Origin: a virus
Lineage: Duplodnaviria > Heunggongvirae > Uroviricota > Caudoviricetes
Strand: one strand, 5' to 3'
DNA length: 38,923 bases
Virus record (IMG/VR): IMGVR_UViG_2541047706_000009
The notes below the pieces were generated by a model. It did no database searches. It worked only from the letters and a program-made list of their open reading frames with translations, and was not told where the DNA came from. The first letter of the stretch is position 1. Every line of letters starts with the position of its first letter. Positions 1 through 29,610 of this stretch are shown here, piece after piece. A program made the translations under genes and the position numbers.

Positions 1-516
1 ATGAAATTTAAAAAATGTCTTCTGCCTGTGGCAATGTTAGCGTCATTCACTCTGGCAGGATGCCAGTCAAATGCTGACGATCATGCCGCCGATGTTTATC
101 AAACCGATCAACTGAATACCAAACAAGAAACTAAAACCGTTAATATTATTTCCATTCTTCCCGCAAAAGTTGCCGTAGACAACTCCCAAAATAAACGGAA
201 CGCACAAGCCTTCGGCGCGCTTATTGGCGCAGTCGCTGGCGGTGTTATCGGCCACAACGTCGGTTCTGGCAGCAATTCCGGAACGACGGCAGGGGCAGTT
301 GGCGGCGGAGCTGTAGGCGCGGCAGCGGGTTCTATGGTGAATGATAAAACCTTAGTGGAAGGTGTTTCTTTAACATATAAGGAAGGCACCAAAGTGTATA
401 CCTCTACCCAGGTGGGTAAAGAGTGCCAGTTTACGACAGGTTTAGCCGTTGTTATTACCACAACGTATAACGAAACGCGTATTCAGCCAAATACTAAATG
501 TCCTGAAAAGAGCTAA
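1..516 (+). CDS. Exported lipoprotein with Gly-rich (glycine-zipper-like) segment
   Basis: Lipobox LAGC after a signal peptide; Gly/Ala-rich stretch GALIGAVAGGVIGHNVGSG typical of SlyB/17-kDa-antigen-like lipoproteins. ORF begins at window base 1. Confidence 0.55.
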   Translation: MKFKKCLLPVAMLASFTLAGCQSNADDHAADVYQTDQLNTKQETKTVNIISILPAKVAVDNSQNKRNAQAFGALIGAVAGGVIGHNVGSGSNSGTTAGAVGGGAVGAAAGSMVNDKTLVEGVSLTYKEGTKVYTSTQVGKECQFTTGLAVVITTTYNETRIQPNTKCPEKS

Positions 517-531
517 TAATCAGGAGGAGTC

Positions 532-1071
532 ATGAAGAAAGTTTTTCTTTGCGCCATCTTGGCCTCCTTAAGCTATCCGGCTATCGCCTCATCATTGCAG
601 GATCAACTCTCTGCTGTAGCAGAAGCTGAACAGCAAGGTAAAAATGAAGAGCAAAGGCAGCATGACGAATGGGTCGCGGAGCGCAACAGGGAAATCCAGC
701 AAGAGAAGCAACGTCGCGCAAATGCCCAGGCCGCCGCTAACAAAAGAGCGGCAACGGCAGCAGCAAATAAGAAAGCTCGTCAGGATAAACTGGACGCCGA
801 AGCCTCTGCGGACAAAAAACGCGATCAAAGTTATGAAGATGAGCTACGCAGCTTAGAGATTCAGAAACAAAAACTGGCGCTGGCGAAAGAAGAAGCCCGC
901 GTTAAGCGAGAAAACGAATTTATCGATCAGGAACTGAAGCACAAAGCTGCGCAAACCGATGTGGTGCAATCTGAAGCTGACGCCAACAGAAATATGACTG
1001 AAGGCGGTCGCGATCTGATGAAAAGCGTGGGCAAAGCAGAAGAGAACAAATCGGACAGCTGGTTTAATTAA
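532..1071 (+). CDS. Secreted charged coiled-coil protein (unknown function)
   Basis: N-terminal signal peptide (MKKVFLCAILASLSYPAIA), then K/E/Q/A-rich low-complexity sequence. AGGAGG RBS 7 nt upstream; follows the previous gene after 15 nt. Confidence 0.5.
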   Translation: MKKVFLCAILASLSYPAIASSLQDQLSAVAEAEQQGKNEEQRQHDEWVAERNREIQQEKQRRANAQAAANKRAATAAANKKARQDKLDAEASADKKRDQSYEDELRSLEIQKQKLALAKEEARVKRENEFIDQELKHKAAQTDVVQSEADANRNMTEGGRDLMKSVGKAEENKSDSWFN

Positions 1072-1112
1072 TCGATGTTAGTAACTTCAAGCCTATGATT
1101 CTTGAAGATAAA

Positions 1113-1145
1113 AAACCCTCTGTAGTAACAGAGGGTTTTGTTCAT
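1113..1145. terminator. Bidirectional rho-independent terminator
   Basis: Hairpin aaaccctctg-tagtaa-cagagggttt with an A-run before and a T-run after; lies between the convergent left-end operon and the lysis cassette. Confidence 0.5.
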
Positions 1146-1290
1146 TCATAGTGCAGGGATTAAAATCATTCCCACTCAATTATTTACGATAACCATAACT
1201 AATTGAGTGATAACATTTTTCCAAATCTCAATTTTTCCCGTACCGTTTTATATACCGTCACCGGAAATCAGTACCATGAAAAATGCCATG

Positions 1291-1773
1291 CTATCTGGTC
1301 AAAGTGTCGTACTGTTTTTCGCAGACTCTTCCGGCTTCGGCTGCCCGGTCAGCATACTCTGCCAGTTGTCTGTTTCTCTCGAGAGATTTGCTGAGCACGT
1401 CGGCAAGCAAAACTCCGGTGTCTGCGGCTGACGACCCAGCGCCGACAATGGCGTTATACTGCCTGAGCTGCTCACGGATGGCAAAGAGTTGTTGCTGCAA
1501 CCGGCCAGCGCGAGCGGCAGCATCAAGAGCATCATTGCGCGCCTGGTCGATCCTCTGCTGCGCTTCACGTTCATTTGTCGCTTTCTCCTGTTCGTAGTGC
1601 TGACGAACTCTCTCATCTTCAGCTTTGCGGTCTTCCTTCGCCTGCGCATACCCGGCGTCGTACTGACGACTGCCGTGTGCATTCCAGGCTACAACTCCTT
1701 ATATGACCAGAACAGCAAGCATCGCCATGATAACCAACTGTTTCCAGTATGCTTTTGCGAATGCCAAGATCAT
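1291..1773 (-). pseudogene. i-spanin (Rz-like) interrupted by an in-frame TAA
   Basis: ATG overlaps the endolysin stop (ATGA at 1770-1773). It encodes a hydrophobic N-terminus [24 protein letters not shown], then an in-frame TAA at 1699-1701, then a continuous Rz-like periplasmic coiled coil (..SRQYDAGYAQAKEDRK..RLQQQLFAIREQL..) to the stop at 1291. Confidence 0.5.
1299..1574 (-). CDS. o-spanin (Rz1-like) outer-membrane lipoprotein embedded in Rz
   Basis: Alternate frame inside the Rz region. AGGAG RBS 10 nt before ATG; signal MNVKRSRGSTRRAMMLLMLPLALAGCS with lipobox, followed by a short Pro-containing mature part. Confidence 0.5.
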   Translation of the reverse strand: MNVKRSRGSTRRAMMLLMLPLALAGCSNNSLPSVSSSGSITPLSALGRQPQTPEFCLPTCSANLSRETDNWQSMLTGQPKPEESAKNSTTL

Positions 1774-2399
1774 ACCGCCAGCACCTTACTGGCAGTGATG
1801 TACCGCGCGCGCCGGTCGTCGATGCCGTTCCGGCCACCATTGATAATCAGAGTTACACGTGCAATATCGCCGGTATACTTCATGCATCCTTTGCTGGCGA
1901 AAAACCACGCCGCGCTACGAGCCGCATATTCGTCCTGCGCCAGCAGTTCAGGATTCTCCAGCAGGTCAACCTTCAGACCGTTTCCGCAATCACGATAGTT
2001 ATTCAAACCGGTAATCTGGATAAGTCCGCGACCTCGGTAATTCCATCCATCGCCGGGGGCATTGTTCCCCATGCGTTTGCTGTACACCAGATTGGCAATC
2101 GCTCTCTGGCGCTCAAGTGGCAATGGTGGTTCGCCTGCGCGTCGCCCCAATGCGTTGGCCTGTCCCTGGGTGAGACGCCCAGCCCGAACGAAGTTAGCCA
2201 GTCCGGTGACGCTGTAGTTGAAATTTTCCTGCAACTGGTTGAAGCCCCCAGACTCATGCCCGACTTGAGCAATAAACATTGCCTGCTCTTCTGGTTTGCT
2301 GATACCAAACTCTCTCATCGCAGAAGTTATATGCGAGAACCAGCGTGCAGCCAGCGCCTCGCTGATACCAGCAGCTCGCTGGAATTGTTTAATCTCCAT
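1770..2399 (-). CDS. Endolysin, family-19 glycoside hydrolase (chitinase-like lysozyme)
   Basis: Translation from [23 protein letters not shown].. carries GH19-like blocks ([29 protein letters not shown]). GAGG RBS. The ORF-track N-terminal extension to 2564 was trimmed. Confidence 0.75.
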
Positions 2400-2697
2400 G
2401 TTTAGACCTCGATACTTTGAAAATTTGAACGACGTTACCGCGCGTTTTAATAACCGCAGCGAGCATGACAGCGTTGATAATGACCTCAGATAAATCCACA
2501 GCCATTGGCGTGCGGAACCAGATTGCATAGGCAACACGAACCGGAATACTGGCCGCAGCAACAATCAGGAAATAAGCAAGCCACCCCCCCCATCTTCGAT
2601 GTTGAGATCCGTTACGCCGGAATGTGACAACGCGAATTGCTATGCCAGTACAAATAACTGCATTGGTGATAAGCAAAAAAAACTCATGCGTTACCAT
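2389..2697 (-). CDS. Small membrane protein, holin/antiholin candidate
   Basis: 102 aa with 2-3 predicted TM segments, directly upstream of and overlapping the endolysin start; GGGAGA RBS. Confidence 0.45.
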
Positions 2698-3097
2698 CGT
2701 CTTTTCTCCCCGGAATTAACTCGCGTGGATTATCGGAACGGTGATAGAGCCAGATGCCAATTCGTACTGCGACGATTGCTGACACAAATGCGCCAGCAGA
2801 GAAAACAATCCCTTTCTCGAAAGAGTCCTGCGTGATGGTAGGTATCAGGCTGGCTATGCCGATAAGAATTGATGCTGTGGGTTTGTAGAAGAGAAGACCG
2901 CAGAGAAAGCTGAGTAACGCCAGGAGAACGCGGCGCTTGACAGGATACTCTACTGCAGAGGTAACAAAAATTACCGCCCCGGCCAGCGATCCAAGCGCCA
3001 CTTCAGGAGGTACGCCGGCGATGACTGCCGCCAGCGCACCGTAGCTAAGCCCCTGATTTATCGTATCAGCTGTTAGCGATGCGGACATGATGACCAC
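2684..3097 (-). CDS. Multi-TM membrane protein, holin candidate
   Basis: About 135 aa, very hydrophobic with 3-4 TM segments, first gene of the lysis cassette. Start ambiguous between GTG at 3097 and ATG at about 3088. Confidence 0.45.
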   Translation of the reverse strand: MVIMSASLTADTINQGLSYGALAAVIAGVPPEVALGSLAGAVIFVTSAVEYPVKRRVLLALLSFLCGLLFYKPTASILIGIASLIPTITQDSFEKGIVFSAGAFVSAIVAVRIGIWLYHRSDNPRELIPGRKDDGNA

Positions 3098-3177
3098 CGT
3101 TTACTATGCATGATGAACCTCCTTAGTTGGGTAAGTTCATCATACACAATAAACCGTTTATGGATAAATGGTAATAG

Positions 3178-5340
3178 TTAAGCGCTGAAACCGCCGACTC
3201 TAACTTTTAGCGTAGAGAGATCAACATTAACAGTTATGTTTAATACACCACTCCCCGCTGAAATAGAGAATAAGCGCCGTCCGCCTGACGTTCCGCCCCC
3301 CGCCGGTGGAGTGGTATCGAGTTCACCTGTGATCGATATTGAAATGGTACCCTCACGGTTAGCAACGAGTAGCTCTAAACATTCAGCCCAGGTGTTTTGT
3401 GCAGAAGACCAAGCATCGATAAGGATTCTCTGCGTCGTTCTGTTTGGTATTGCGATGGATTTGACTTCACCTGTATTTACCAGACCTTGAAAACGAGTTC
3501 CGTAATCTATCCAGCTAATGCTATAACCTGCATTTGCTGCAGGGTCTTGAGAGGTATACCAGGTCTTGGTTCTCACGCCAGTATGACCGATTGTCAGTAG
3601 AGGACGAGCAAATTGATCTCGATGAATGTATGCATTATCTCTGATCCCGTTGCTCTGCAGATCAATATCTGCAGCACGTGGATTAGGGAAAGTCGCTTTT
3701 CCACCAACATCAAAAACATCATAATGATTTGCAACTGCAGGAATCCATCCGTTCCTGTCCAGATTTCTAAAGAAATCCTCGAAAGCCAGCCAGTATGATT
3801 GCTGATGACCTAAAAGGTTAGGGTGAACAGTCTGTATTTCAGGGGTCCGGTCAAATAATGCCGTTTCACCATATTTAGCAACAGCATCAAACCAGTATTT
3901 TTCCACATCGATAAGCACGCAACCCATTTCTACAGCGATTTTCCTGATCGCATCGTTTCCTCGAAGGAAGCGGACACCTGCTTGAATATTTACCCCATTC
4001 CACTCAAACGTGACATTTGAGTTTGCGGCAGATGGTATAATGTTATTATCAGAGACTGGGGCCGGAGAAGATGAAGGCCATATTTGAGAAATTCCAGCCG
4101 GCATGCTCCAGCTATATTCAGAAATATTCGGATGAGGTGTGGTTGTTAGCACAACATCCCCGCCGGCCTCCCTGACTAAATTAATAGCATTTCGAAGGCG
4201 CTGTTTAAATCCGTTTTCATTGAATGTTTGCCCGGCATTATATTGTGCGGTAGGAAAATCATTCATTCCATATATAAACAAAGCAATATCAGGATATATT
4301 CCTTCAGCAACAACTTCAGGCCATTGGTTAACAATAAAATTATTTATCGTTGAACCATTAACAGATTTGTTTGTGAAGTTAATGGGATAAATACGCTGCT
4401 TATTTAGCGTATCGTTCATATACTCAAAAAATTTAGCAACTGGTGCCTGTGTTGCTGGATCAGGAAGCGTAGCACCAACCCCAACAGAAGAACCAAACCC
4501 ATAGAGTCGAAATAAGTTCTGATAGCCAGAAACCCCATGCCGATAAGCTGTTAATTTATTGACGAAATTTGGGAAAAGGGCCTGTGATGATCCAGACGCA
4601 GCACGAATAGAAGCCTCTACCGTTCTTCCTGTTTCCGTAGCAACTAAGCCAGCACCGTCTTTTGATGCTAGCTTGATTGCCAAATCTGCCGTTTCAGTTT
4701 GCCCTGCAATCGGAACAGGATCCCCCTGGTCATTGAATCCAATCAGCATATTTGCTCTGGCTCGTACAGATGCCATGATTCCTACCTGACTTTCCGGAAC
4801 TCGCAAAGTTCGCTGGAAAAGACCATCTGCATGATGAGTGCTGTCATTGTCTCCCGAGTCCACATAAGATTTTGTTGCTGCATCCTGTGCCTGTGACGGG
4901 TCACGCAGATTACGAATGCGGTTGTTGAGTGCGTCGTAATAGTTCGCGATGAACGACGGCTTACGCAGCGCCAGGCGGAGAAAGCTGAAGCACTGCTGGA
5001 TAAGCATGGTCAGCTTGTCGAACGCATCCTCATGTACCTCTGCGAAAAATTTCCCCTGGTTACGCAGATCAGTCTCCTGGGTAACAGGCAAGTCACGTGA
5101 GATAGAGATTTGCCATCCGTTGGCCAGAGGTGACATCAACACAATGCTCCCACCTGAATAGCTTCCCGCCCCGGTAACGGAGTAATCGGTATCCAGAGTA
5201 AGTACCGTAATATTTTCGTTAAGGTCAGCAACCTGTACTGTCAGATCTGACTTCTTGAAAATACGAAACTTGTACGGGAAAGATGTGGTAACGCCGTTAC
5301 CAGTGTATTCGTTGTGGTCAACTTCGGTTGAGACCGTCAT
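3178..5340 (-). CDS. Tailspike/tail fibre with conserved N-terminal particle-binding domain and SGNH-hydrolase-like block
   Basis: 720 aa. N-terminus TVSTEVDHNEYTGNGVTTSFPYKFRIFKKSDLTVQV resembles the virion-attachment domain of podovirus tail fibres/spikes. Central region has GxND (IYGMNDF) and HPN motifs of SGNH/GDSL esterases. GGAG RBS. Confidence 0.7.
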   Translation of the reverse strand: MTVSTEVDHNEYTGNGVTTSFPYKFRIFKKSDLTVQVADLNENITVLTLDTDYSVTGAGSYSGGSIVLMSPLANGWQISISRDLPVTQETDLRNQGKFFAEVHEDAFDKLTMLIQQCFSFLRLALRKPSFIANYYDALNNRIRNLRDPSQAQDAATKSYVDSGDNDSTHHADGLFQRTLRVPESQVGIMASVRARANMLIGFNDQGDPVPIAGQTETADLAIKLASKDGAGLVATETGRTVEASIRAASGSSQALFPNFVNKLTAYRHGVSGYQNLFRLYGFGSSVGVGATLPDPATQAPVAKFFEYMNDTLNKQRIYPINFTNKSVNGSTINNFIVNQWPEVVAEGIYPDIALFIYGMNDFPTAQYNAGQTFNENGFKQRLRNAINLVREAGGDVVLTTTPHPNISEYSWSMPAGISQIWPSSSPAPVSDNNIIPSAANSNVTFEWNGVNIQAGVRFLRGNDAIRKIAVEMGCVLIDVEKYWFDAVAKYGETALFDRTPEIQTVHPNLLGHQQSYWLAFEDFFRNLDRNGWIPAVANHYDVFDVGGKATFPNPRAADIDLQSNGIRDNAYIHRDQFARPLLTIGHTGVRTKTWYTSQDPAANAGYSISWIDYGTRFQGLVNTGEVKSIAIPNRTTQRILIDAWSSAQNTWAECLELLVANREGTISISITGELDTTPPAGGGTSGGRRLFSISAGSGVLNITVNVDLSTLKVRVGGFSA

Positions 5341-5443
5341 GTTAAATCTCCAGATAGTCGCAGCACCCGTTGCGCCGCATATCTGGTTATTCTATTACCT
5401 GAAAAACCATATATGTATAGAAAGACTATAAATACCAATAGAT

Positions 5444-5460
5444 ATTACCTTTATGGTAAT
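5444..5460. promoter_or_regulatory. 17-bp palindromic operator-like site ATTACC-tttat-GGTAAT
   Basis: Perfect inverted repeat with 5-bp spacer in the divergent tailspike / candidate-antirepressor intergenic region; same motif as the sites flanking the repressor gene. Confidence 0.55.
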
Positions 5461-5496
5461 TTGCAAAACGTGCTGGATAGCAAACAAATTATTTGA

Positions 5497-5516
5497 TACT
5501 GTATAAATATACAGTT
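5497..5516. promoter_or_regulatory. LexA (SOS) box
   Basis: TACTGTATAAATATACAGTT matches the consensus TACTGTATATATATACAGTA at 18/20 with perfect CTGT-N8-ACAG; sits 20 nt upstream of the ATG at 5536. Confidence 0.7.
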
Positions 5517-5535
5517 ATTGCATGGAGAAGATAAG

Positions 5536-5793
5536 ATGCAGCGGTATCACTATCCACTGGAAGACGGATTTACCGAAAGGATTCACACGCCGGGAGGCGT
5601 CAGGTCACTGGTGGAGGGATCGCACTTGATGAAATTACTCCGGGATCTCGATAAGGATGGATTTAATGTCGATGGCCCACTTGCCGAACTGACTGCACTG
5701 ATTAACTACGTCACCAGCTCACAGATGTCTATGCAGGATCTGCAAACACATCTCGACTATTGTGCCGAACAATTACGAAAACAAACCACATAA
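5536..5793 (+). CDS. Small SOS-regulated protein, candidate antirepressor
   Basis: 85 aa (MQRYHYPLEDGF..). GGAGA RBS 7 nt upstream; promoter region carries a LexA box and an operator-like palindrome. Function inferred from regulatory context only. Confidence 0.45.
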   Translation: MQRYHYPLEDGFTERIHTPGGVRSLVEGSHLMKLLRDLDKDGFNVDGPLAELTALINYVTSSQMSMQDLQTHLDYCAEQLRKQTT

Positions 5794-5798
5794 AGAAA

Positions 5799-5816
5799 AG
5801 GCCGCGAAAGCGGCCT
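5799..5816 (-). terminator. Hairpin terminator at the end of the late operon
   Basis: aggccgc-GAAA-gcggcct stem-loop, followed on the minus strand by a T-rich tract (cttttcttta). Confidence 0.5.
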
Positions 5817-5828
5817 GTGACATGTCAC
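5817..5828. repeat. Perfect 12-bp palindrome GTGACATGTCAC (copy 1)
   Basis: Identical 12-mer recurs at 26015-26026; this copy overlaps the stop of the 5825-6121 gene and abuts the terminator hairpin. Confidence 0.6.
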
Positions 5829-6121
5829 GTTCCTTTTCTGAATGATAGCCATTCGAAAAATGATGACATTCCACCGCAGACAATAGCAAAGATTATCCCA
5901 CCAAAGAAGAGAAGGCCAGCCTGCCACCACTCCCACCGCCATACATCCACAGCGCCAACCATACCAACAATCGCTCCAACAAATGGAATATAGCTCACGA
6001 TGAAAGCAATGGGGGCTGCAATTATCCAGTGCAATCCCCACCATGATTCAAGCCCAGCCATAATTGCTGCCAACTGAAAAAGACCAACGACGATATAAAC
6101 AATGAATCCTATAGCTTGCAT
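5825..6121 (-). CDS. Small integral membrane protein (3 TM)
   Basis: 98 aa, hydrophobic throughout with Trp-rich loops; AGGTGA RBS; last gene of the late transcription unit. Confidence 0.55.
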   Translation of the reverse strand: MQAIGFIVYIVVGLFQLAAIMAGLESWWGLHWIIAAPIAFIVSYIPFVGAIVGMVGAVDVWRWEWWQAGLLFFGGIIFAIVCGGMSSFFEWLSFRKGT

Positions 6122-6133
6122 GTAGTCACCTAT

Positions 6134-6307
6134 TTACCCAGTAAAAATCAGAGGCCTCCCCTCAATAAGGCTTGCAACAAGAACTAATCCCTGCACAACA
6201 AAGATGAACCAGCAAATAGCTTGAGTCTGAGGGTTAAGAAAATATTTGTAGCGGTCAATAAATAACAGCCCACCAGAAATTATCACACTCAAAATAATTA
6301 AAAACAC
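6134..6307 (-). CDS. Possible small membrane protein (57 aa, GTG start)
   Basis: Hydrophobic ORF below the ORF-track size cutoff, found by manual translation; AGGA RBS 6 nt before GTG, between the 824-aa gene and the 98-aa membrane protein gene. Confidence 0.3.
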   Translation of the reverse strand: MFLIILSVIISGGLLFIDRYKYFLNPQTQAICWFIFVVQGLVLVASLIEGRPLIFTG

Positions 6308-6316
6308 AACACATCC

Positions 6317-8791
6317 TTATTGCGGAGTGACATCCTGAGGTCGCCACCAGTATGTCTGGTTAAACTCTTTCTTCGAACGTTGCTCCATTTTACGCAAATA
6401 GCCTGGTGAAAAATACTCCTGCATCTGGTTAAAGATCATGTGATCAAGAGCTGCCTTCAAGTACCAGAGATTCGCACCTGGCATCAGCCCTTTCCCAAGT
6501 TTCACCAGATCACCACCAGTCTGCTCGTTCTTCCCTTCCACAGCATTTAATGGTATGCCCTGAGCTATCTTCACTACGTCATCAACCAGGCCAGCTACCG
6601 GGCCAAGCATCGACGCCAGCGCGCCGCTTCCGTACCTAGTGTGATCTGACAATAAAAAGTCACCGTAAAGGCCAAGACCACCACCTTTCAGTAGAGCACC
6701 AAGCCAAAATTTAGCAGCATCTTCTCCTGTCATCTCGCGAGGATTACGACCAGACGCAAGGTCGTTAAGTTGCTGCGACAAAGCGCCAAGAATGGTCGTA
6801 CTGGCAATAAACGTCGCAATATATGCCGCACGCCCACCAGCAGACGGCATACCCATAGCGCGTGACCAGTGACGCATAACCACCGAGATAGGGAACGATT
6901 TAAACAGGAAAACACTTCTCGTTAATTCACCTTTCCATGTTCCACGCTGAATACCAGAACCGGTTATCAGTTGCTCACGTGCTCCCGGTGTAATAACAGC
7001 CATATCAACTTCTTCAGTTACGGCACCGAGCAGTTTACGCATTGCCTCAAATTTCACGCGTTCAGGCTCACCAAGATGTTTAACTGCTGAATCAGGGATA
7101 CGCATAATGCTTTCCGGTGTCAGCATCGTATTATTACCGTTCCCCCAGTCCTCCTGTTGCGCCAGCTTCCATACGCTCCAGTCTGTGTCAGTAATCCCTT
7201 TGCTTTTCAGGATACGAAAATCAGAGTCATCGAGGCTACGAAGGTCTGGTGTCCGTGACACTACTTCTCCCAGGCTTCCCATCATGGTTACGCCATAGGC
7301 GCGCTTGTGCGCATCTGACCATGCTGTAAGCCCACTGGCACGCATTACCGCCGTTGCTGCCCAACGAGACACTGACGGCCCCATATTATCCATCGCCCAG
7401 CGGTTAACGCTGCCAAGTAGAGATTCCATTGCCAGACCAGCGCGGCGCGCCCGCGCAAGTTCTGTACGGTTCGTTGGGTCCATAGCTTCAAGCTGGTTGC
7501 GGAATAACTGGTTCATTGGAAGGTTGGTCACCTTCGCAGACAGATACATGGTTCCAAGATCAGAGAACGATGATAGCAACGCGGATCCGAGTCTGCTGGC
7601 AACCAGCCAGTTGCGGATATTGTCAGACCATCGCGCGATGTGCGGATTCGCTACAGGCTGTGTCTTTCCGGAAATAAAGTTGTACAGATTCTCTGTGTTG
7701 TTCGCCAGCCGCTCGACTTTACCGGTTTTACTCGGGTTAGCTGTTGCCGTTTCTGCCTTCACCTGATCAAGAAGAGAGCGGAAAACATGATCGGGGTTTG
7801 GGCCATATGTTTCCACCAGTGCAATATCTTTACTGATACCTTCCAGGTGACCGACCATGATTTCCCATAGAGAGCGATCGCCATAAAGTTGCTGATATTG
7901 CAGATATGAATCTGCATCTTTGAAATGTATCTGTCGTGATGCATTACCACGGTTAGCACGTGCGCCGGAAATTCGCATGCCGGTATCAGTAAGCTTATTC
8001 AGCCCACCAGTGGCGATTGTGTTATAAGCTTCTCCAAGAAATGCAGACAACTCGGCATCGTTCATCAGTTGTCCATCGGCTCGGATATAATATTTGCGAT
8101 CCAGCTTACCTATAACATCGCTAACCCACTTATCCTTTGATACCGCCCCAACCTTTTCCATAGAATGATGTTGAGGGATCCCCCAGTTTTCGAGATAGCC
8201 AATGTCCCCACCAGCATCATTAAACCGGCGGCGCAGTAGCTCTGTCACTTCTCTCCACGCCTTAGCACCTTTTCTTGCTTTAGCATTGCCAGTATTTTGC
8301 CCCCGCATTTCATATACCAGATCACGTACGCCCGCTTCATCTTCAAACAGACCAAAAAAGCGAGGATCAACTGCTTCGAATGCCTCCTGCAATTGACTCA
8401 ATGCATAATCACGGGTGGCTTTTGTTCTGGATTCAACAGAGAGGAAATTCGATTTACCGTCTGCATTAAAAGCAATAGTACGGTTAAGAGCGCCAAGTTT
8501 CCCATCAGCCCCTTGATAGCTATTGATAAATTTATCCAATCTCTGACGTGCGGCTATAGTGAGGGTCACACGACGTTTCTTTAATGCCGCTTCTCGCTGT
8601 AATTCTTCAGATGCCAATTGTGCTGCACGATATAGCCGCTCTGATTCGGAAAGTTGTCTCCACGACATCGGGTCATCACGAGCAATGGAGCGCATATTTC
8701 GATAAATGCGGTCTTCAATGTTCTGTATTTCTCGCGCCGTTAACGTGCGCTGCGCCGCCTGCTGGACCGCTTGTATACATTCCTGTCTCAT
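6317..8791 (-). CDS. Large internal virion / DNA-ejection protein
   Basis: 824-aa ORF in the block of large ORFs between the tubular proteins and the tailspike, the position of podovirus ejection proteins; no specific motif recognised. Confidence 0.55.
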   Translation of the reverse strand: MRQECIQAVQQAAQRTLTAREIQNIEDRIYRNMRSIARDDPMSWRQLSESERLYRAAQLASEELQREAALKKRRVTLTIAARQRLDKFINSYQGADGKLGALNRTIAFNADGKSNFLSVESRTKATRDYALSQLQEAFEAVDPRFFGLFEDEAGVRDLVYEMRGQNTGNAKARKGAKAWREVTELLRRRFNDAGGDIGYLENWGIPQHHSMEKVGAVSKDKWVSDVIGKLDRKYYIRADGQLMNDAELSAFLGEAYNTIATGGLNKLTDTGMRISGARANRGNASRQIHFKDADSYLQYQQLYGDRSLWEIMVGHLEGISKDIALVETYGPNPDHVFRSLLDQVKAETATANPSKTGKVERLANNTENLYNFISGKTQPVANPHIARWSDNIRNWLVASRLGSALLSSFSDLGTMYLSAKVTNLPMNQLFRNQLEAMDPTNRTELARARRAGLAMESLLGSVNRWAMDNMGPSVSRWAATAVMRASGLTAWSDAHKRAYGVTMMGSLGEVVSRTPDLRSLDDSDFRILKSKGITDTDWSVWKLAQQEDWGNGNNTMLTPESIMRIPDSAVKHLGEPERVKFEAMRKLLGAVTEEVDMAVITPGAREQLITGSGIQRGTWKGELTRSVFLFKSFPISVVMRHWSRAMGMPSAGGRAAYIATFIASTTILGALSQQLNDLASGRNPREMTGEDAAKFWLGALLKGGGLGLYGDFLLSDHTRYGSGALASMLGPVAGLVDDVVKIAQGIPLNAVEGKNEQTGGDLVKLGKGLMPGANLWYLKAALDHMIFNQMQEYFSPGYLRKMEQRSKKEFNQTYWWRPQDVTPQ

Positions 8792-8796
8792 TTAAT

Positions 8797-10599
8797 TTAA
8801 CCTCTCAAGAAACACGCCACAGCGACATCAAACAGGCTGGAATCCTGTATTGCCTGCTCACTTTCCCTGTTCGCTTCATCCAGTACTTCACGCGCGCTGC
8901 GCGATTGTGGATTACCATCATCATCCAGCACGGTGATTATCATGTCAGGTGATTCAAGCAGCGAGTCTTCAGCTATGCGCAGATCAATATCTCCTGCCTG
9001 ATCCGCCATCATTTTTTGTTCTGCCTGTTGCAATATTTTATCAGGCTCAAAAGGAGCTACTTCGTCTGGCGTCCTGACCTCTGCTGTTTTATAGAATGAA
9101 ACAGCCTGAGCATTAAGTTCACTTTCTGCCTGCTGTCTCCGAGCCAGTTCTGCTCGAGCTTCAAAAAACTGACCGCCAGGCTCATGCGGTGCCAACGCGT
9201 TACGAGAAAATTCCAGGCGTTCTTGTGCCTGCCGGATTCGTTGGTCAATATCGCGAAGTCTGGCCTGTTTATCTGATCGAGCACGAGACAAAGCTTTACC
9301 GCTACCGGTTGGCTCTTCTGCAAGAATTTGTGCACGCTGTTCAGTGAGATTTTCAATAATTCGTTGGCTATTAGCGATTTCAGACTGGTAAACCTGTCTA
9401 TCTCCACGCGGCAAAAGCTGCGCGGCCTGTTCTTCAAGCAACCGATTTTCTATAGCGCGCGCCGTTACTCCATCATCTACAGATGACAGAGCCTCATTAA
9501 CTGCCTGAGACAGCAGACTCTTGCGCCTAGGAATTTCACTGAAAGATGCAGACTCAACAATGCTGGCAACGTCTACAGGTCTCCCCTGGCTAACATCAGA
9601 CATAGCTTTTCGCAGAGCCTGAATGTGAGAATTGCGCGAAAGCACGTTGATCGGCACGCCGGGAGAAATATCAATTTCAGCATGATGAGCGGCATTCGCC
9701 GCCAGTGCAGCATCGACATCAACTGGTGAAAAATTGGGGGTGCTTGTAGCCTCACCGCGAGAGTTAATAAATCTGCCGACACCACCAAACGCCACCCCAA
9801 GAACAGCATCAATAGCAATTGCCTGTCGATCCAACACATCATACTGGTTAGCCATTTCGCTATAGCCACCATCACGAAGCGTTTTTGCAGTAAGCCCACG
9901 CTGTGCCATACCGAACGCAATATTTGTACCTGCGGCATAGGCAATATCTGGCGTTGCACGTACTGCTGTTGCTGCGGCGCGTCGCACTGAACTTTCACCC
10001 GTCCGCGCAAGCTGAGCCGCCACACCTTCCGCCAGCGCACCACCAGCACGTAACCCGAGGCTCATAGGGATCAGTGTTCCGGCACCAGCAGTAATACCCT
10101 GCACTAATCCCGCTTCCTGCGCCGTCCTGAAATCAACACCCTGTGCTGTCAGCCGTTCAAACTCAGAAAAACCCTGTAGCGAAGTTACCGCCGCAGCACC
10201 TCCGACCGGACCACCGAGCGTTGTACCGATAACAGCCTGCCCGCCCATATCGAACAACCCATAAAGAACCTGCCCGGCGGTTCCGGTTGTCGCGGCATCA
10301 GGCGTCAGCCGCTTAACCTGCTGCTCTGCTAGTTTTCTCTGCTCGGCAATGTATGAAACTGAAGTGTCATTGAGCGAGGTGTTTTCGTTAACAAACTGAG
10401 CAATCGGGGATACGATTTTATCCATCCCTGCCCAGAGCAACTGATCTGGCTTTGCCACCAGCCCGGAGTACAAACCAGACAATGCCGCTCCTACAGCATT
10501 GTCGAAAAAACCAACATCGCTGTTAAAGCCAACTGGATTTGATGCTGCTTCGTCAAGCTGCTGATTCTGGTTTACTTGATTAAGGCCAAAGTAACTCAT
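8797..10599 (-). CDS. Internal virion / ejection protein
   Basis: 600 aa, Gly/Ala-rich N-terminal half and charged coiled-coil C-terminal half; start overlaps the upstream gene stop. Confidence 0.5.
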   Translation of the reverse strand: MSYFGLNQVNQNQQLDEAASNPVGFNSDVGFFDNAVGAALSGLYSGLVAKPDQLLWAGMDKIVSPIAQFVNENTSLNDTSVSYIAEQRKLAEQQVKRLTPDAATTGTAGQVLYGLFDMGGQAVIGTTLGGPVGGAAAVTSLQGFSEFERLTAQGVDFRTAQEAGLVQGITAGAGTLIPMSLGLRAGGALAEGVAAQLARTGESSVRRAAATAVRATPDIAYAAGTNIAFGMAQRGLTAKTLRDGGYSEMANQYDVLDRQAIAIDAVLGVAFGGVGRFINSRGEATSTPNFSPVDVDAALAANAAHHAEIDISPGVPINVLSRNSHIQALRKAMSDVSQGRPVDVASIVESASFSEIPRRKSLLSQAVNEALSSVDDGVTARAIENRLLEEQAAQLLPRGDRQVYQSEIANSQRIIENLTEQRAQILAEEPTGSGKALSRARSDKQARLRDIDQRIRQAQERLEFSRNALAPHEPGGQFFEARAELARRQQAESELNAQAVSFYKTAEVRTPDEVAPFEPDKILQQAEQKMMADQAGDIDLRIAEDSLLESPDMIITVLDDDGNPQSRSAREVLDEANRESEQAIQDSSLFDVAVACFLRG

Positions 10600-13109
10600 T
10601 GCGGAATATCTCCGGAGAATCTCTGACGCTTCTGTGTCAGATCAAGAACAACGGGAGAACCATCATCTTTTAGCAGATAACCAGTACCAAGTTTCACCAG
10701 GTACTGACTATCGCCGTAACTTTGCAAACCATACTGACCAGGCGGTGTTTTTATCCCTGTGCCAACAACTTGTTCATTCCAAGCCTGATTAACCTGCTTA
10801 TCGAATTGCTCTGCAGACATTCCCCACGGCAAAAGAACATTCCCCATTCCGTTATAGTCATGCACGCCACCTGTAGCTACGTTAACAGCCTGTTTCCAGA
10901 TATCATTGTCAATTTCGCCTGATACCACGCCTTTTTTCGCCATCACACCAGCGTAATAGTCCTTTGCGATCTCGTATGCCATTGATGCCCCCTGAGCATC
11001 ACCAGCAAATGCATCCTTCACCATGTCAGAAAACTCAAGGCGAAGATCAGCATCTTTAGGCATCGGAATACCTTTCGCGTCATCAGTACCTTTACGAGCC
11101 GCCGCGCCAGCAAGAATTGTCTGCGCAGCGGTTTCTGGAGACACGGAAACATCCGGATTAAACCAGTTTTTTTCTGCCAAAATACCACCTGGCTTATCCA
11201 TCAGTATCCCGGCAACGGCAGCAGATGGAGCGTTGGCACTGATCTGCTGTAGTGCTGACATATACACCTGCCCACCACCAGTGCTCTGCCTGATGGTATC
11301 GAGATATGCTGCCTGTTGGGAAACGGGCGCATCACGAAAGAAAACACCGATCTGATTGGCCTCGTCTTTGGAAAAGAACGTCAGTGGAGTGCCATATGAC
11401 TTAGCAAGGTCACTGACCTGAGCAGCACGCAAGGCAACGCTCTGTCCAAAGTTATCCTTATTGCTCATGTCGATAGGCTTTGCCTGTCCGGCGGCAAGAG
11501 AGAACTGCACAGGATCCGATTGCCGCTGCTTTATCACCTGATTTGCAGCCGAAACAACGTTGTCATAAAGAGCTGCGCGTGCCTCATACCCCTCCCCTGT
11601 CTCACCAGTATCCGGGCGTAATTGCTCAACATATGCTGTAATGCTGCTTGTCGGCATATTGCGGAAAGAGCCTATATACTGTCCGGCGATCTGCGTATTT
11701 CTGAACTCGGTATATCGCAGGTTTCCTTCTCTGACGCCATAAGCTGCAATAAAATCAGCCTCACCAGGTGGGTTAGGAAATTCAACGCCACGCATATACG
11801 CAGCCGTCGCATCGCGAACCTGGCTGTCAATCATCGTTTTATATTCATCCTGCTGCTGCCGACGAAGTTGATCCGCCTGTCGCATAAAACTTGCCTGCGC
11901 CTCAGGAGATGCCGCATCGAATGCTGCATTACCGGTATAGCGTTTAGTGTTGGTTGGAATTGTTAATAAACCAAGTGCTGCACTGACACCAGCAGTTAAC
12001 TGCTGATCACTGTATGGCTGGCTACCGTTCTCATGATGGATAATGGCTGCACAAAGCGCCTTCAGGGTATCAGGATTAGATGCATCGAGAGGCTCATCAG
12101 CAGAAACGCCAAGTTGTTCGCACACTGCTTTGATATACGACATAGTGTCATTTTTATCAGTAGGCGGTGCCCAGCGATTAATTATCTCGCTGACGGTATC
12201 AATACCCTGCCTCTGATACGACATCAGGTTCCGCCCTAATGCACGAATCCCGTGTTCAGGTGTTTCGAATTTAGCAAATCGACCATCATCACCGGTCTGG
12301 CCTACCCACGGATTAGTTTTGCTGTATTCGAGATTTCCTGGGTTATTGTTGCGTATGCCACGGGCACGCTCGGAAGAGTCACTATCTGCTACAGCACGGC
12401 GAGCTCCAGCAGCAGTATCACTTAACTCGCCATTACTTTGGATGAATGCGGTCGCATTGTTTGCCGACCACTGGGACAATGCAGCATCAGCAACCTTCTC
12501 TTTAAACTCGATTTTCTTGGCCTGGATTTGCTCGTCACTCCAGCCATGTGCAATGCCGTAATCCTCAATTTGCTGGAAAGTTTGCTTATTAGCCAATACG
12601 TATGCGGCGTTGTCGCCATACAATGCTGCGGCATTTTTACCATTGTTCAGCAGCGTAGCCTGAAACTGGCCTTCTTCGTAGGCATTTATTTGCCCTATCT
12701 CGTGCCGCCCTGCCTGCGTAGTGAACTGAATGCGCTGCTGCTGCGCCTGCTGCATGAAAGCATTACGAGCCTGTTCATCCGGCAGCGACATAGCCAGTTG
12801 TTCGACCTGAGCATCAAACTGCTGCGTATACTCATGGCCTTTTCCAATAGCATTTTTCCCTTTCAGGTTAAGCAATCCTGTTTCAGGATTATTCAGCAGA
12901 TCACTGCTTATCTGACTGAGGTTAAGAGATGCCTCCTGAGCCAAAGCGATATTGGCACGCTGTTTTGCCTGACCAAAAACATCAATTGCCTCTGTCCCTG
13001 CCCGAACAAAAGCATCACCAATACCTGGCTGAGAAAACGTCTGCAAGCCTGCTGACTGAACTCCACGGCTCTGAACCTGACGGCCGGATACTGTTGGTAC
13101 GACTGGCAT
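10596..13109 (-). CDS. Large internal virion protein
   Basis: About 837 aa from ATG at 13109 with GGAGGA RBS (ORF-track GTG extension to 13184 trimmed). Contains a conserved-looking block ..GIRNNNPGNLEY..W.GQ..D.RFA.F.TPEHGIRA.. of unassigned function. Confidence 0.5.
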   Translation of the reverse strand: MPVVPTVSGRQVQSRGVQSAGLQTFSQPGIGDAFVRAGTEAIDVFGQAKQRANIALAQEASLNLSQISSDLLNNPETGLLNLKGKNAIGKGHEYTQQFDAQVEQLAMSLPDEQARNAFMQQAQQQRIQFTTQAGRHEIGQINAYEEGQFQATLLNNGKNAAALYGDNAAYVLANKQTFQQIEDYGIAHGWSDEQIQAKKIEFKEKVADAALSQWSANNATAFIQSNGELSDTAAGARRAVADSDSSERARGIRNNNPGNLEYSKTNPWVGQTGDDGRFAKFETPEHGIRALGRNLMSYQRQGIDTVSEIINRWAPPTDKNDTMSYIKAVCEQLGVSADEPLDASNPDTLKALCAAIIHHENGSQPYSDQQLTAGVSAALGLLTIPTNTKRYTGNAAFDAASPEAQASFMRQADQLRRQQQDEYKTMIDSQVRDATAAYMRGVEFPNPPGEADFIAAYGVREGNLRYTEFRNTQIAGQYIGSFRNMPTSSITAYVEQLRPDTGETGEGYEARAALYDNVVSAANQVIKQRQSDPVQFSLAAGQAKPIDMSNKDNFGQSVALRAAQVSDLAKSYGTPLTFFSKDEANQIGVFFRDAPVSQQAAYLDTIRQSTGGGQVYMSALQQISANAPSAAVAGILMDKPGGILAEKNWFNPDVSVSPETAAQTILAGAAARKGTDDAKGIPMPKDADLRLEFSDMVKDAFAGDAQGASMAYEIAKDYYAGVMAKKGVVSGEIDNDIWKQAVNVATGGVHDYNGMGNVLLPWGMSAEQFDKQVNQAWNEQVVGTGIKTPPGQYGLQSYGDSQYLVKLGTGYLLKDDGSPVVLDLTQKRQRFSGDIPQ

Positions 13110-22721: not shown

Positions 22722-22798
22722 GTGGCATTAGCTCAGTTGGACAGAGCAACCGCCTTCTAAGCGGTTGGTCGCAGGTTCGAATCCTGCATGCCACGCCA
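22722..22798 (+). tRNA. tRNA-Arg (anticodon UCU), phage-encoded
   Basis: Cloverleaf readable by eye: acceptor GTGGCAT/ATGCCAC, D-arm GCTCAGTTGGACAGAGC, anticodon stem ACCGC/GCGGT with loop CTTCTAA, T-arm GCAGGTTCGAATCCTGC, discriminator G and encoded CCA. Confidence 0.85.
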
Positions 22799-26026: not shown

Positions 26027-26364
26027 ACTATTAATTTCGTTTCATGCCAGCCTTTAGTCACCCAGCATTGCGAGTCACCATTGCACGGGCATGAATTAAC
26101 TGGAACTCTCTCGCCGCACTTACCGCAACGTTTTCTGCTGATCGATTTTATACGCCCGCGCACCCGGGCATCATCCTGGCGGATCAGCAGCGCGATGTAC
26201 TCGGCCATTTCATAGGGATCTCGACCAGGGCGCCGGGCGGCGCAGTTACGCTCCAGCATTTCAATTTCCTGAGCATCAAGCACAATCTCCAGCTTACGCA
26301 CACCAGATGCAGCTTGTCTGGCTCTCTGAGCGGCTTTGCGCTCTGCTGCTGATTTAGCCATCAA
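26023..26364 (-). CDS. Small zinc-finger protein, candidate late-gene regulator
   Basis: 113 aa, basic N-terminus, C-terminal CxxC..CxC cluster (RKRCGKCGERVPVNSCPCNGDSQC); last gene before the late operon. Confidence 0.4.
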   Translation of the reverse strand: MMAKSAAERKAAQRARQAASGVRKLEIVLDAQEIEMLERNCAARRPGRDPYEMAEYIALLIRQDDARVRGRIKSISRKRCGKCGERVPVNSCPCNGDSQCWVTKGWHETKLIV

Positions 26365-26635
26365 TATTTACCTTTATCGCGTATACCTTTACCGGTTTAT
26401 CGCCGAAGTGGGGATGTGTGATTGTCTTGATTTCATATCCGTCATACGGGACGTCAATTCTACGACTGGAGTCGTCGCGCTTCGGATATCCCTTTGTGAT
26501 AATCAGTCGGTCATAATCCCTGAACATAATTCGCTTATTCCAGTAGTCATTACACAGGCGATACTCTTCCGTTTTCTCTCCGCGAATGATGGCATCGAAG
26601 TATTCACCTTTAACGGCTAGTTGCAGGTTAGCCAC
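26354..26635 (-). CDS. ASCH-domain protein
   Basis: About 93 aa from GTG with AGGAGG RBS; has the GxKxxExR signature (GEKTEEYR) of ASCH domains. Confidence 0.5.
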   Translation of the reverse strand: MANLQLAVKGEYFDAIIRGEKTEEYRLCNDYWNKRIMFRDYDRLIITKGYPKRDDSSRRIDVPYDGYEIKTITHPHFGDKPVKVYAIKVNIDG

Positions 26636-27203
26636 GATTAACCTCCTGCTTCGGTGCTGCTGGCATTTCACGCCAGTGCGTAACTGAGTGCGGATCCGGA
26701 TATTCGGTGCCATCATCCCAGCGATTACCATTCCACATTGCAGACCACATCTCACCGTCTTCATACATGACCATTACCGGAATTAACTTATCCGGCATTC
26801 GCTCACTACAGCTTATCCAACCATCCGGAGTTCCCGGAGTTGGTCCATCGAATTCGGGCATGTCAGGACCTTTTCTGATAGCTTTAGCCAGCTCCAGCGG
26901 GTCATCGTAAAGCCAGTCGCCAGTTTGTGGGTGATTTGCTTCTGCCAGTTGCGCCGCCCATTCAAGGCCGTCTTTGTGACCTTGCAGATAGCCCAGCGGC
27001 AACTCATCACGATTACTTACATGTTCGGCACCCCGAAGCATGGCGGCGCGGAGTTTCTGTATCTCCCGTGCCATTATTGCGTCCTGACGAGGAGTGAACA
27101 TATCACCTGCAATAATTCTGTTTAGTTCCTCGTCAGTGAACTCATAATCATCAGGAACATTGTGAACCTCAGCATAAAGAGGCTTTTTGGTAGAAATGGT
27201 CAT
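26628..27203 (-). CDS. DUF551-like phage protein
   Basis: 191 aa; C-terminal region DGWISCSERMPD..VTHWREMPAAP matches the DUF551 pattern (GWISV..RLP...THWMPLP). Confidence 0.5.
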   Translation of the reverse strand: MTISTKKPLYAEVHNVPDDYEFTDEELNRIIAGDMFTPRQDAIMAREIQKLRAAMLRGAEHVSNRDELPLGYLQGHKDGLEWAAQLAEANHPQTGDWLYDDPLELAKAIRKGPDMPEFDGPTPGTPDGWISCSERMPDKLIPVMVMYEDGEMWSAMWNGNRWDDGTEYPDPHSVTHWREMPAAPKQEVNRG

Positions 27204-27904
27204 CGTAAAACACCCTCCGCACTTACCAGTCCGTTTCGCAAAAGATAATCCATCGCCCTATCTGGTAATTTGCAATCAGGTTTTGCTTTTTTCAGTTGGC
27301 TGACCAATTGTTTAACCAGCACTGTTAATTCGATAACCTGGTAGCGCGGCAATGGTGAATTATCGGATTTGCCCTGACTTTCTGCGCTGCATGAATGCCC
27401 TTCCAGCCATGCCAATGCTTGTCGCATGAAATACGCAATATGTTTGCCGTGGTAATCGTCTTCATCGATGTGAAAAGCGATACTGCGGATGTATTCTATT
27501 GCGTTTTCAATAGCCTCCGGCCTTATCGGCGCTGACATATTTTGATTTTGGAGTGCCAAGACGCGGCTGGCATCCTCAACATCTTTAACTGCATCTGCGC
27601 AGTAGTTATAGCGATTGCACTCCACTAACTTCTGCTTGAGATTTTCAATTGCTTGCGCGACATCAGCCTGCAATTCCCGAACTGGCGGAGTGGCATATAA
27701 CGGCACCCACTTTGGTGCTTTATCCCCGACCGAACGCTGATACCAGTCACCCGGTTTGTATTCATAAAACTCACCAACAGGCTCTGCTTCCAGCAAGGCT
27801 AACGCTATTTCATAAGCTCGGCGCTCAATATTGTCTCGCACGTCCAGGCTGCCGATGCGCTCTTTGATTTCTTTAATCAGTTCTTTGTCGGTGAAAGTGG
27901 TCAT
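27200..27904 (-). CDS. Hypothetical nin-region protein
   Basis: About 234 aa from ATG 27904 with AAGGAG RBS (ORF-track extension to 27985 trimmed). Confidence 0.45.
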   Translation of the reverse strand: MTTFTDKELIKEIKERIGSLDVRDNIERRAYEIALALLEAEPVGEFYEYKPGDWYQRSVGDKAPKWVPLYATPPVRELQADVAQAIENLKQKLVECNRYNYCADAVKDVEDASRVLALQNQNMSAPIRPEAIENAIEYIRSIAFHIDEDDYHGKHIAYFMRQALAWLEGHSCSAESQGKSDNSPLPRYQVIELTVLVKQLVSQLKKAKPDCKLPDRAMDYLLRNGLVSAEGVLR

Positions 27905-27905
27905 A

Positions 27906-28466
27906 TCACTCTCCTTTGATGCGAATGCCAGCGGCGCGTGGCACATTAACTTCCACGATGCGCACTGTTGGTTTGTACATCTCAATCGCTGTCAGCCAGT
28001 CAGCTCCTGTCATGCGCTTTTCCGCATCGCCATTAGTCCACTGAACCGGTACACCAATAGCCTTCATCGCGATTTCTATTTCCCCGGCAATGGCGCTTTT
28101 TCCGCAACCAGTAAAACCAGAAACAACGACAAGAACTTCACCTTTGGCTGGTTTTATTTCCCGTGCTTCCAGTTCTGCAATGCGCTTTTTGTCTGCTTCC
28201 CGTTCATCCAGTAGTGCCAGCACGGTAGCTGGACTGGCTGCGGCGATGAATTCAGCATTGGCCTGCTGTTCCATTTGGAAATCTTCATCGAAACCGCTTT
28301 CAGGATGCGCTCCTTCAATTCTGCAAATGGGAATATATCCAGCAGCCTCGCGATGAATTAGTGCATCATCACCATCAAATCGGCCCTCTCCATATTCGAG
28401 CGACCACACACCACACGTTGCTTTCTCTGCCTTTTCACGCAGTGCCTGATAGTCAATTTCGCTCAC
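27906..28466 (-). CDS. Ead/Ea22-like protein
   Basis: 186 aa; N-terminal MSEIDYQALREKAEKAT and internal ..ATVLALLDEREADKKRIAELEARE.. resemble the Ead/Ea22 family of lambdoid prophages (from memory). Confidence 0.45.
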   Translation of the reverse strand: MSEIDYQALREKAEKATCGVWSLEYGEGRFDGDDALIHREAAGYIPICRIEGAHPESGFDEDFQMEQQANAEFIAAASPATVLALLDEREADKKRIAELEAREIKPAKGEVLVVVSGFTGCGKSAIAGEIEIAMKAIGVPVQWTNGDAEKRMTGADWLTAIEMYKPTVRIVEVNVPRAAGIRIKGE

Positions 28467-28948
28467 TGTTTGCCCTCCTTCATAAAAATAATCCAGTGGG
28501 TCTTGTCACCTTTTCCTGTTCGTTGACCGATAACAGGCTTTCTGTCGGTCAGTGCCAATATCTGGCGAACAGGTATTTGCGTTTCATTCCATTTAAAAAT
28601 CAGAACGCCGGATGGACGCAACACACGAAAGGCTTCTTTAAATCCCTGCCGCAAATCATCACGCCAGGTATCTTTATTCAGTCGTCCATATTTCTTTCCC
28701 ATCCAGGCGTTATCACCAACACGCTCAAGATGCGGAGGGTCGAATACAACCATCGAAAAGGATGCGTCTGCAAATGGTAGTGCACGAAAATCAGCTATCA
28801 GGTCAGGACTGATAATCAGGCGTCGTCCATCACATAATGTGTGCTCTTCCTTTCTGATATCGCTAAATATCGCCCGGTCGTCATTCTTATCGAACCAGAA
28901 CATGCGACTGCCACAGCACATGTCGAGGATTGCTGCATTTCCAGTCAC
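28463..28948 (-). CDS. DNA methyltransferase (amino-methyltransferase type)
   Basis: About 161 aa from GTG with AAGGAGG RBS; SAM-binding-like block ILDMCCGSRMFWF and catalytic DPPH tetrapeptide (VVFDPPHL). Start overlaps the upstream stop (GTGA). Confidence 0.55.
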   Translation of the reverse strand: MTGNAAILDMCCGSRMFWFDKNDDRAIFSDIRKEEHTLCDGRRLIISPDLIADFRALPFADASFSMVVFDPPHLERVGDNAWMGKKYGRLNKDTWRDDLRQGFKEAFRVLRPSGVLIFKWNETQIPVRQILALTDRKPVIGQRTGKGDKTHWIIFMKEGKQ

Positions 28949-29610
28949 TGGCTGCCTCCTTTGCGAATCTGTTCCGCCCATTCTTCAAGGGATTTTTCCG
29001 CATATTCACCGGACAGGCCATCAATCGGATGCGGTTCATTAGCCAACTCTTCTTTCGCTGACAAAATCATGCGTGTAACGTCGAAAACTTCACGCAAAGA
29101 CTTATTGATAAATCCGTGATTGAACGCAGCAGCAAGACGGCTGGCGGTATAGTTAATCCCCTCGTTGCGTGCTTCCGCACGAATTTCAGACAGGAAAGCA
29201 TCGGTGGCCGGGGTTTCAACACGGATGCTGTCGCGCAAGATGAAAAATGCATTGAGCATTCCAGTCTCTGGCGCTTCATCCTGATGCTTCTCATACGCAT
29301 CAAGAGCCTTCATCATCTCAGGTCCGAATGGTTGAGGTTGCACATACTTCAGCCCCGCATTCTCCACTGCCAGCGCCGAAAACTTATCGTGTGCCAACTT
29401 AACAGCTGCATCAGCCTGCTTAATTGACTCAATCGCTTTCTGTTGGTCTTCGGCCAGCGCATTAGCACGCACCAGTTGCACTTCCAGTTGCGTTGCCAAA
29501 TCGCTGATCAGCTTTGCCACACTACGCATATCAACGGCACCACATTCTGCTTTCAGTTCCGAAGCCATCTCATGCCCGGCGGCAACTAACCCTTTGATAT
29601 TACTTTCCAT
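28945..29610 (-). CDS. Hypothetical protein coupled to the methyltransferase
   Basis: 221-aa helical/acidic ORF whose stop overlaps the methyltransferase start. Confidence 0.4.
   Translation of the reverse strand: MESNIKGLVAAGHEMASELKAECGAVDMRSVAKLISDLATQLEVQLVRANALAEDQQKAIESIKQADAAVKLAHDKFSALAVENAGLKYVQPQPFGPEMMKALDAYEKHQDEAPETGMLNAFFILRDSIRVETPATDAFLSEIRAEARNEGINYTASRLAAAFNHGFINKSLREVFDVTRMILSAKEELANEPHPIDGLSGEYAEKSLEEWAEQIRKGGSQ

Follow-up and report, generated by a model that had tools for sequence, protein, structure and literature searches.

The i-spanin gene Rz of a prophage in the chromosome of Escherichia coli carries an ochre codon (TAA) at codon 25, and we consider it about 82% probable that this is a real mutation, i.e., a recent null allele that arose by one base change. 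Judged from its sequence, the locus can be classed as a nonsense pseudogene, having a stop where the intact orthologues have a sense codon and homology that continues beyond it. The Rz of the window, by which we mean the whole 38,923-nt stretch of DNA that was analysed, is a homologue of the embedded two-component spanin family, yet it cannot encode the protein that defines that family. Its partner, the embedded o-spanin gene Rz1, is intact. The system is a known one, namely the embedded spanin of epsilon15 and phiV10, and the state is known as well, from rzpR/rzoR of the Rac prophage and from alleles of lambda; no new mechanism is involved, and the stop marks an ordinary loss of function, a base-call error being the less likely reading.

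The lysis cassette and the interrupted Rz frame

DNA searches place the prophage in the epsilon15/phiV10 group (genus Uetakevirus), beside yfgI in the E. coli chromosome. As the window reaches from yfgH in the host to the start of the integrase gene (37667-38923), nearly the whole prophage is included. The cassette (Table 1) runs in the order holin-like gene, holin, GH19 endolysin, Rz/Rz1 and terminator, with the spanin genes last and directly after the endolysin. The site collinear with the terminator-like hairpin is annotated as a terminator in both phiV10 and epsilon15, and the host genes yfgI and yfgH lie downstream of it.

Table 1. Features of the lysis cassette, with positions numbered along the window
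Feature	Position	Strand	Remarks
Second holin-like membrane protein (Phage_holin_8), 134 aa	2684..3088	-	
Holin (Phage_holin_3_7), 102 aa	2389..2697	-	
GH19 endolysin, 209 aa	1770..2399	-	Its stop and the Rz start share an ATGA; amino-acid sequence 100% identical to that of BE311
Rz-like i-spanin gene (DUF2514) with internal ochre codon	1291..1773	-	160 codons plus stop; collinear with the 483-nt Rz of BE311, phiV10 and epsilon15
N-terminal Rz stub, 24 aa, partial transmembrane segment	1702..1773	-	Hydropathy maximum at residues 12-31
Premature TAA, codon 25 of Rz	1699..1701	-	Wild type TCA (Ser); mutated base 1700, plus strand T against G in relatives
Untranslated rest of the Rz frame	1294..1698	-	Last six residues of the transmembrane segment plus periplasmic two-helix domain
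AGGAG, Shine-Dalgarno-like motif	1585..1589	-	10 nt 5' of the Rz1 ATG; direct reading
o-spanin Rz1, 91 aa, intact	1299..1574	-	Signal peptide with LAGC lipobox; +1 frame, nested in Rz
Terminator-like hairpin with T tract	1112..1139	-	3' of Rz, at the prophage/host junction

Read on the minus strand and translated, the start codon of Rz (ATG, 1773-1771) overlaps the stop of the endolysin (TGA, 1772-1770) as ATGA, and the frame then holds 24 sense codons, the TAA at 1701-1699 and a further 135 open codons up to a TAG at 1293-1291. A reading made earlier from the letters alone (the sequence-only reading) had described the frame in the same way, with a TAA at 1699-1701, an ATG overlapping the endolysin stop and 135 codons to the stop at 1291, and translation bore out its coordinates and counts. 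The 135 codons past the TAA match the Pfam family DUF2514 (E=8.5e-38) and PHROG 312, 'Rz-like spanin' (E=3.7e-48); an NCBIfam search gave no match for Rz, Rz1 or the endolysin. An AlphaFold2 single-sequence model of the domain encoded past the stop contains two long helices, at its residues 3-85 and 91-134 (mean pLDDT 82), and the periplasmic domain is thereby predicted to be helical, with two helices joined by a linker, as the spanin family requires. The periplasmic part of lambda Rz has the same helix-linker-helix layout (PMC5295617). From the translation, a single Cys near the C-terminus of Rz (RVCEKQ) would be periplasmic and is a candidate for an intermolecular disulfide.

The 19-residue hydropathy maximum of Rz lies at residues 12-31 (mean Kyte-Doolittle value 2.37), so the stop at codon 25 falls inside the transmembrane segment and the 24-residue product is without a full anchor. 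The sequence-only reading had put the stop after this segment; that a hydrophobic N-terminus is encoded holds, but the stop lies within the segment and not behind it. The change is G-to-T on the plus strand at 1700, i.e., C-to-A in the gene, which turns Ser25 (TCA) into the ochre codon TAA, and the site lies outside any homopolymer or repeat. Beyond the TAA, the first in-frame start codon is a TTG at 1500 (codon 92), and the 69-aa ORF which begins there is absent from the recorded gene calls. The trait that defines an i-spanin, one polypeptide with both an N-terminal transmembrane anchor and a periplasmic domain, would consequently be lost from the product of the window's Rz as it reads.

The nested Rz1 frame runs from the ATG at 1574 to a stop at 1301-1299 and matches PHROG 11621, 'Rz-like spanin' (E=5.8e-41). 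It lies wholly out of frame within Rz and occupies 0.41-0.98 of its length, a range typical for embedded spanins (PMC6139136). Its signal (...MMLLMLPLALAGC) includes an LAGC lipobox (...LPLALAGC) with Ser at +2, which is not an inner-membrane retention residue, while the mature protein has two further Cys (EFCLPTC), both candidates for intermolecular disulfides. Rz1 of the window is nucleotide-identical to that of BE311, the exact protein match is EQO28893.1, and Pfam PF28595 (RzoQ) is recorded for a protein identical to it. The earlier description of an intact Rz1-like lipoprotein in the alternate frame, with a good ribosome-binding site, was therefore confirmed by its 91 aa, the AGGAG 10 nt upstream, the LAGC lipobox and the match to PHROG 11621. 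A lipobox scan of all ORFs in the window returned only Rz1, the host protein YfgH and out-of-frame noise, and no second or unimolecular spanin that could compensate for Rz was found.

The +1 frame of Rz1 is also open for 36 codons 5' of the annotated Rz1 ATG, as far as an ATG at 1682 (window 1299-1682, minus strand). This extension is seen alike in the window, phiV10 and epsilon15, and is very basic (MHTAVVSTTPGMRRRRKTAKLKMREFVSTTNRRKRQ); the 127-aa extended product is absent from the recorded gene calls.

Relatives of the prophage and the rarity of the stop

Among 5,426 complete E. coli genomes, the search for the nearest relative gave BE311 (NZ_CP097213) as the best, with 99.8% identity over 601 bases and a single difference, TCA (Ser25) in BE311 against TAA in the window. 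When window 1-5816 was aligned with BE311, base 1700 (T against G on the plus strand) was the sole difference between 1163 and 5787, a stretch of 4.6 kb that holds Rz/Rz1, the endolysin, the two holins and the tailspike. The same stretch is identical but for base 1700 in four complete genomes and one IMG/VR contig. The BE311 prophage shares the insertion site between guaA and yfgI and is identical from the tailspike through Rz except for the one base, but it has TCA and an intact 160-aa, 483-nt Rz (WP_001375210.1); strains F41, K99S and EC24.26 carry the same phage arm as BE311. Elsewhere the window differs from BE311 by ~1% (e.g., 231 mismatches in 20.6 kb), and BE311 has ~2.8 kb extra and another mosaic in the early region. 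In the host flank (1-1071; yfgH, yfgI) there are 10 differences from BE311, all silent at the protein level, against one in the adjacent 4.6 kb of prophage, which indicates that one phage arm occupies the guaA-yfgI site in hosts of different background.

Two departures from the BE311 prophage were noted, at about window 5788-5816 and 26360-29450. The ~2.8 kb of BE311 that are missing from the window hold DUF4760, a hypothetical gene and a BRO-N gene with a frameshift. The early-gene mosaic of the window differs in turn, with ead/Ea22-like, DUF551 and methyltransferase-like genes, and window 26300-29500 is covered to at most 58% by any complete E. coli genome. A 12-nt string, CAGAGGGTTTTT, is common to two intergenic regions of BE311, guaA-integrase and Rz-yfgI (window 1100-1122; positions 3618 and 43829 of L004). 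The string, which overlaps with the terminator hairpin, may belong to an att core; a run of 12 bases could also match by chance.

The named phages of the group have the same arrangement. Rz/Rz1 of phiV10 (YP_512284, YP_512285) and of epsilon15 (NP_848234, YP_850992) are found in the same place after the GH19 endolysin, with the ATGA overlap, the 483-nt length and a nested, +1-frame Rz1 of 91 aa, and in both phages the two genes are annotated 'Rz-like spanin'. The nucleotide identity of the window's cassette is 95% to phiV10 and 89% to epsilon15, and codon 25, which is TAA in the window, is TCC (Ser) in the former and GTC (Val) in the latter. Kongari et al. 2018 (PMC6139136) place epsilon15 and phiV10 with the embedded two-component spanins, in the 'Bcep176' family.

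Apart from Rz, no damage is seen in the prophage genes compared. All 45 of the other prophage genes compared with BE311 are full length and free of stops, mostly at 98-100% identity, and they include the integrase, repressor, replication proteins, terminase, portal, capsid, tail proteins, tailspike, holins and endolysin. General decay of the prophage was considered as a cause of the stop and is ruled out by these 45 full-length genes. With Rz the only broken gene among those compared, the mutation can be taken as recent and as separate from general decay.

The frequency of the TAA allele was assessed by searching for an exact 38-mer, with the same pattern carrying NNN at codon 25 as control. 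The TAA 38-mer had no match in IMG/VR or in metagenome contigs, where the control matched 46 viral and 14 metagenome loci, all 60 with TCA. In species-representative genome contigs neither the 38-mer nor the control matched, so the null there is uninformative, whereas the viral and metagenome nulls are informative. With a 61-mer centred on the stop, matches came from 196 complete E. coli genome records, and all of these were inexact. Of the 60 control loci, 59 reach the gene start, and every one of these keeps the ATG at the ATGA overlap and the conserved hydrophobic N-terminus; full-length Rz (160-165 aa) is encoded by 57 of the 59, the exceptions being L054 and L064 (contig ends inside the gene). 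The genome with the alternative-start holin variant has wild-type Rz. A stop at codon 25 of Rz occurs in no homologue compared besides the window's own assembly; the TAA allele is a singleton, seen directly in one assembly and unique among the relatives examined. Aligning the gene to the Rz of related phages was the check that had been proposed along with the sequence-only reading, and in BE311, phiV10, epsilon15 and the 59 loci alike the gene starts at this ATGA, encodes a membrane segment at the N-terminus and reads a sense codon at position 25.

Two observations on these loci stand apart from the stop. Across L005-L064, in which the 38 bases of the partial transmembrane segment are identical by construction of the search, the first ~45 residues of Rz are nearly identical and are followed by periplasmic domains of two types which look unrelated, one of 160 aa (the window's type) and one of 162-165 aa (QEDQKQADDK...SLKKQKSWH). 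Near-identical N-termini with two periplasmic types point to a recombination breakpoint within the spanin gene, immediately behind the anchor. L054, a human gut metagenome contig of very low coverage (ORCL01005574, about 2.9), has an Rz of the second periplasmic type that is truncated by a premature stop (141 against 165 aa), which may be an error.

The assembly that carries the stop could be traced. Window 1-11574 is 100% identical, TAA included, to scaffold KE699144.1 of E. coli HVH 33 (4-2174936) in the consensus assembly GCA_000456525.1, and the chromosome carrying the prophage is almost certainly that of this strain. The annotators of GCA_000456525.1 called Rz1, as a 'hypothetical protein' (EQO28893.1), and made no call in the Rz region. 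The 91-aa Rz1 protein is also recorded from Logan re-assemblies of public reads, and two further contigs of 50-200 kb, known from gene calls alone, have the Rz1 call and mostly the same neighbouring gene calls. This pattern of gene calls suggests that Rz is uncallable, with the TAA present, in these two re-assembled contigs too.

Mutation, sequencing error or rescue

The sequence-only reading had left the choice between a spanin-defective prophage and a sequencing or assembly error, and the finding that the window departs by one base from an otherwise uniform 4.6-kb haplotype supports this framing. About 3-4% of random single-base changes in the 4.6-kb stretch would give a nonsense codon, and a chance stop in Rz is therefore unremarkable.

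The alternative that deserves most weight, although we hold it to be rather unlikely, is that the TAA arose in the draft genome through a mistake in base calling, polishing or assembly and that the isolate has TCA and a normal spanin. It would account for an allele that is absent from every collection searched and for a base that is the only difference from five other sequences in 4.6 kb. The change itself, G-to-T, is moreover typical of oxidative damage to template DNA. On the other side, real substitutions are common between the window and BE311 (~1%, as given above), consensus substitution errors are far rarer in high-coverage Illumina assemblies, and base 1700 lies in neither a homopolymer nor a repeat, while the Logan re-assembled contigs seem, from their gene calls, to show the same pattern.

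If the base is real, a functional i-spanin might still be made by an ochre-suppressor tRNA, by readthrough or by downstream reinitiation, which we regard as very improbable. What invites the idea is the Shine-Dalgarno-like AGGAG directly after the stop, followed 12 nt past it by an ATG, together with the fact that the prophage encodes a tRNA. The sequence-only reading had likewise suggested that the TAAGGAG containing the stop could serve as the ribosome-binding site for the next ATG, but this does not hold up as a rescue of Rz, since that ATG (1682) is in the +1 frame of Rz1 and since the AGGAG is already present in the wild-type relatives (tcA GGA Gtt), though not in phiV10 or epsilon15. With ATG 1682 out of frame and the next in-frame start, the TTG, at codon 92, restart cannot rescue Rz, and a product begun at this TTG would be without a membrane anchor. 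A suppressor tRNA from the prophage is ruled out as well, as the only tRNA it encodes is Arg(TCT). Nor is there a conserved recoding site, since no homologue compared has a stop at codon 25, and of the stop codons UAA is the one at which termination is most efficient in E. coli.

It is just as doubtful that the TAA allele is a maintained state, be it a spanin-null state of an intact, inducible prophage whose induced host cells die as spheres with an intact outer membrane and retain the virions or, as an alternative to this, a state in which the Rz1 lipoprotein or the 24-residue stub has gained a role of its own; these two versions together are given very little credence. No support for selection on the TAA allele was found, the allele being a singleton and the nonsense share 3-4%.

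That Rz naturally starts downstream of the stop in the epsilon15/phiV10-like family, and that the gene is intact, is already refuted, because Rz begins at the ATGA overlap with the endolysin in the RefSeq records of BE311, phiV10 and epsilon15, the ATG and hydrophobic N-terminus are kept in all 59 loci that reach the gene start, the post-stop fragment is preceded by another 17-23 positions in the PHROG 312 and DUF2514 profiles, and no in-frame start codon lies between the stop and codon 92. Homologues with such a start were what the sequence-only reading had named as evidence against itself, and none is found among BE311, phiV10, epsilon15 and the 59 loci.

Expected phenotype, parallels and other features of the prophage

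Rz of lambda is a type II inner-membrane protein whose periplasmic helices bind the lipoprotein Rz1, and together they span the periplasm (PMC5295617). Nonsense alleles across its periplasmic domain are lysis-defective, only the last codon being dispensable (PMC5295617). Loss of either spanin subunit gives fragile spherical cells bounded by the outer membrane, a defect that goes unnoticed in shaken flasks if the medium is not supplemented with divalent cations at millimolar concentration (PMC6139136). By analogy with lambda Rz/Rz1, the recent null allele that we favour would leave only the 24-residue stub to be made, no i-spanin would be delivered to the periplasm, and Rz1 by itself could not link the inner to the outer membrane. 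The holin and endolysin would, on induction, still kill the cell and remove its wall, and the outer membrane would be neither fused nor disrupted; the cells would round up, with phage release relying on shear or low divalent cations. The phenotype predicted from this analogy is one of spherical, unlysed cells in the presence of Mg2+ and of poor progeny release under low-shear, Mg2+-rich conditions. Since the lysis genes are silent in the lysogen, the Rz mutation is probably neutral for it, and as spanin loss does not save the induced cell, no selection for that loss is expected in the lysogen.

Two known cases resemble the window. In the Rac prophage of E. coli K-12, the i-spanin rzpR is likewise annotated as a pseudogene and the embedded o-spanin rzoR as an intact CDS, but Rac is a heavily decayed lambdoid prophage in which rzpR is a 300-nt remnant of another spanin family, whereas the prophage of the window is otherwise complete and has a one-base defect. 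The laboratory nonsense alleles of lambda Rz (Cahill et al. 2017, PMC5295617; Berry et al. 2012, as cited in that paper), which are standard tools, place a stop in the i-spanin and leave the nested o-spanin frame untouched, with spheres bounded by an intact outer membrane as the expected outcome. These alleles were made or selected in the laboratory and belong to another spanin family, whereas that of the window is natural (or apparent) and stands in the genome of a clinical isolate.

The significance of the finding is mostly one of annotation, and there is little beyond it. In place of the lone 'hypothetical protein' that was deposited, the annotation should give a pseudogene of Rz (DUF2514), interrupted by an internal stop, and beside it Rz1 as an intact gene. 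If the base is real, HVH 33 has a Uetakevirus prophage that is complete but for a spanin-null allele of natural origin, and the strain might serve to test whether release depends on spanins in the Bcep176 family as it does in lambda. A prophage that is scored 'intact' by gene content can hide a one-base release defect.

Two further features of the prophage were noted. The tRNA-Arg lies between the terminase and portal genes (window 22722-22798, plus strand), has the anticodon TCT, which reads the rare AGA codon, and is annotated in BE311 too. The tailspike gene (window 3178-5340, minus strand), directly upstream of the lysis cassette, encodes an SGNH/GDSL hydrolase domain, an esterase-type receptor-modifying enzyme; that place upstream of the cassette is taken by an O-acetyltransferase gene in phiV10 and by serotype-conversion genes in epsilon15.
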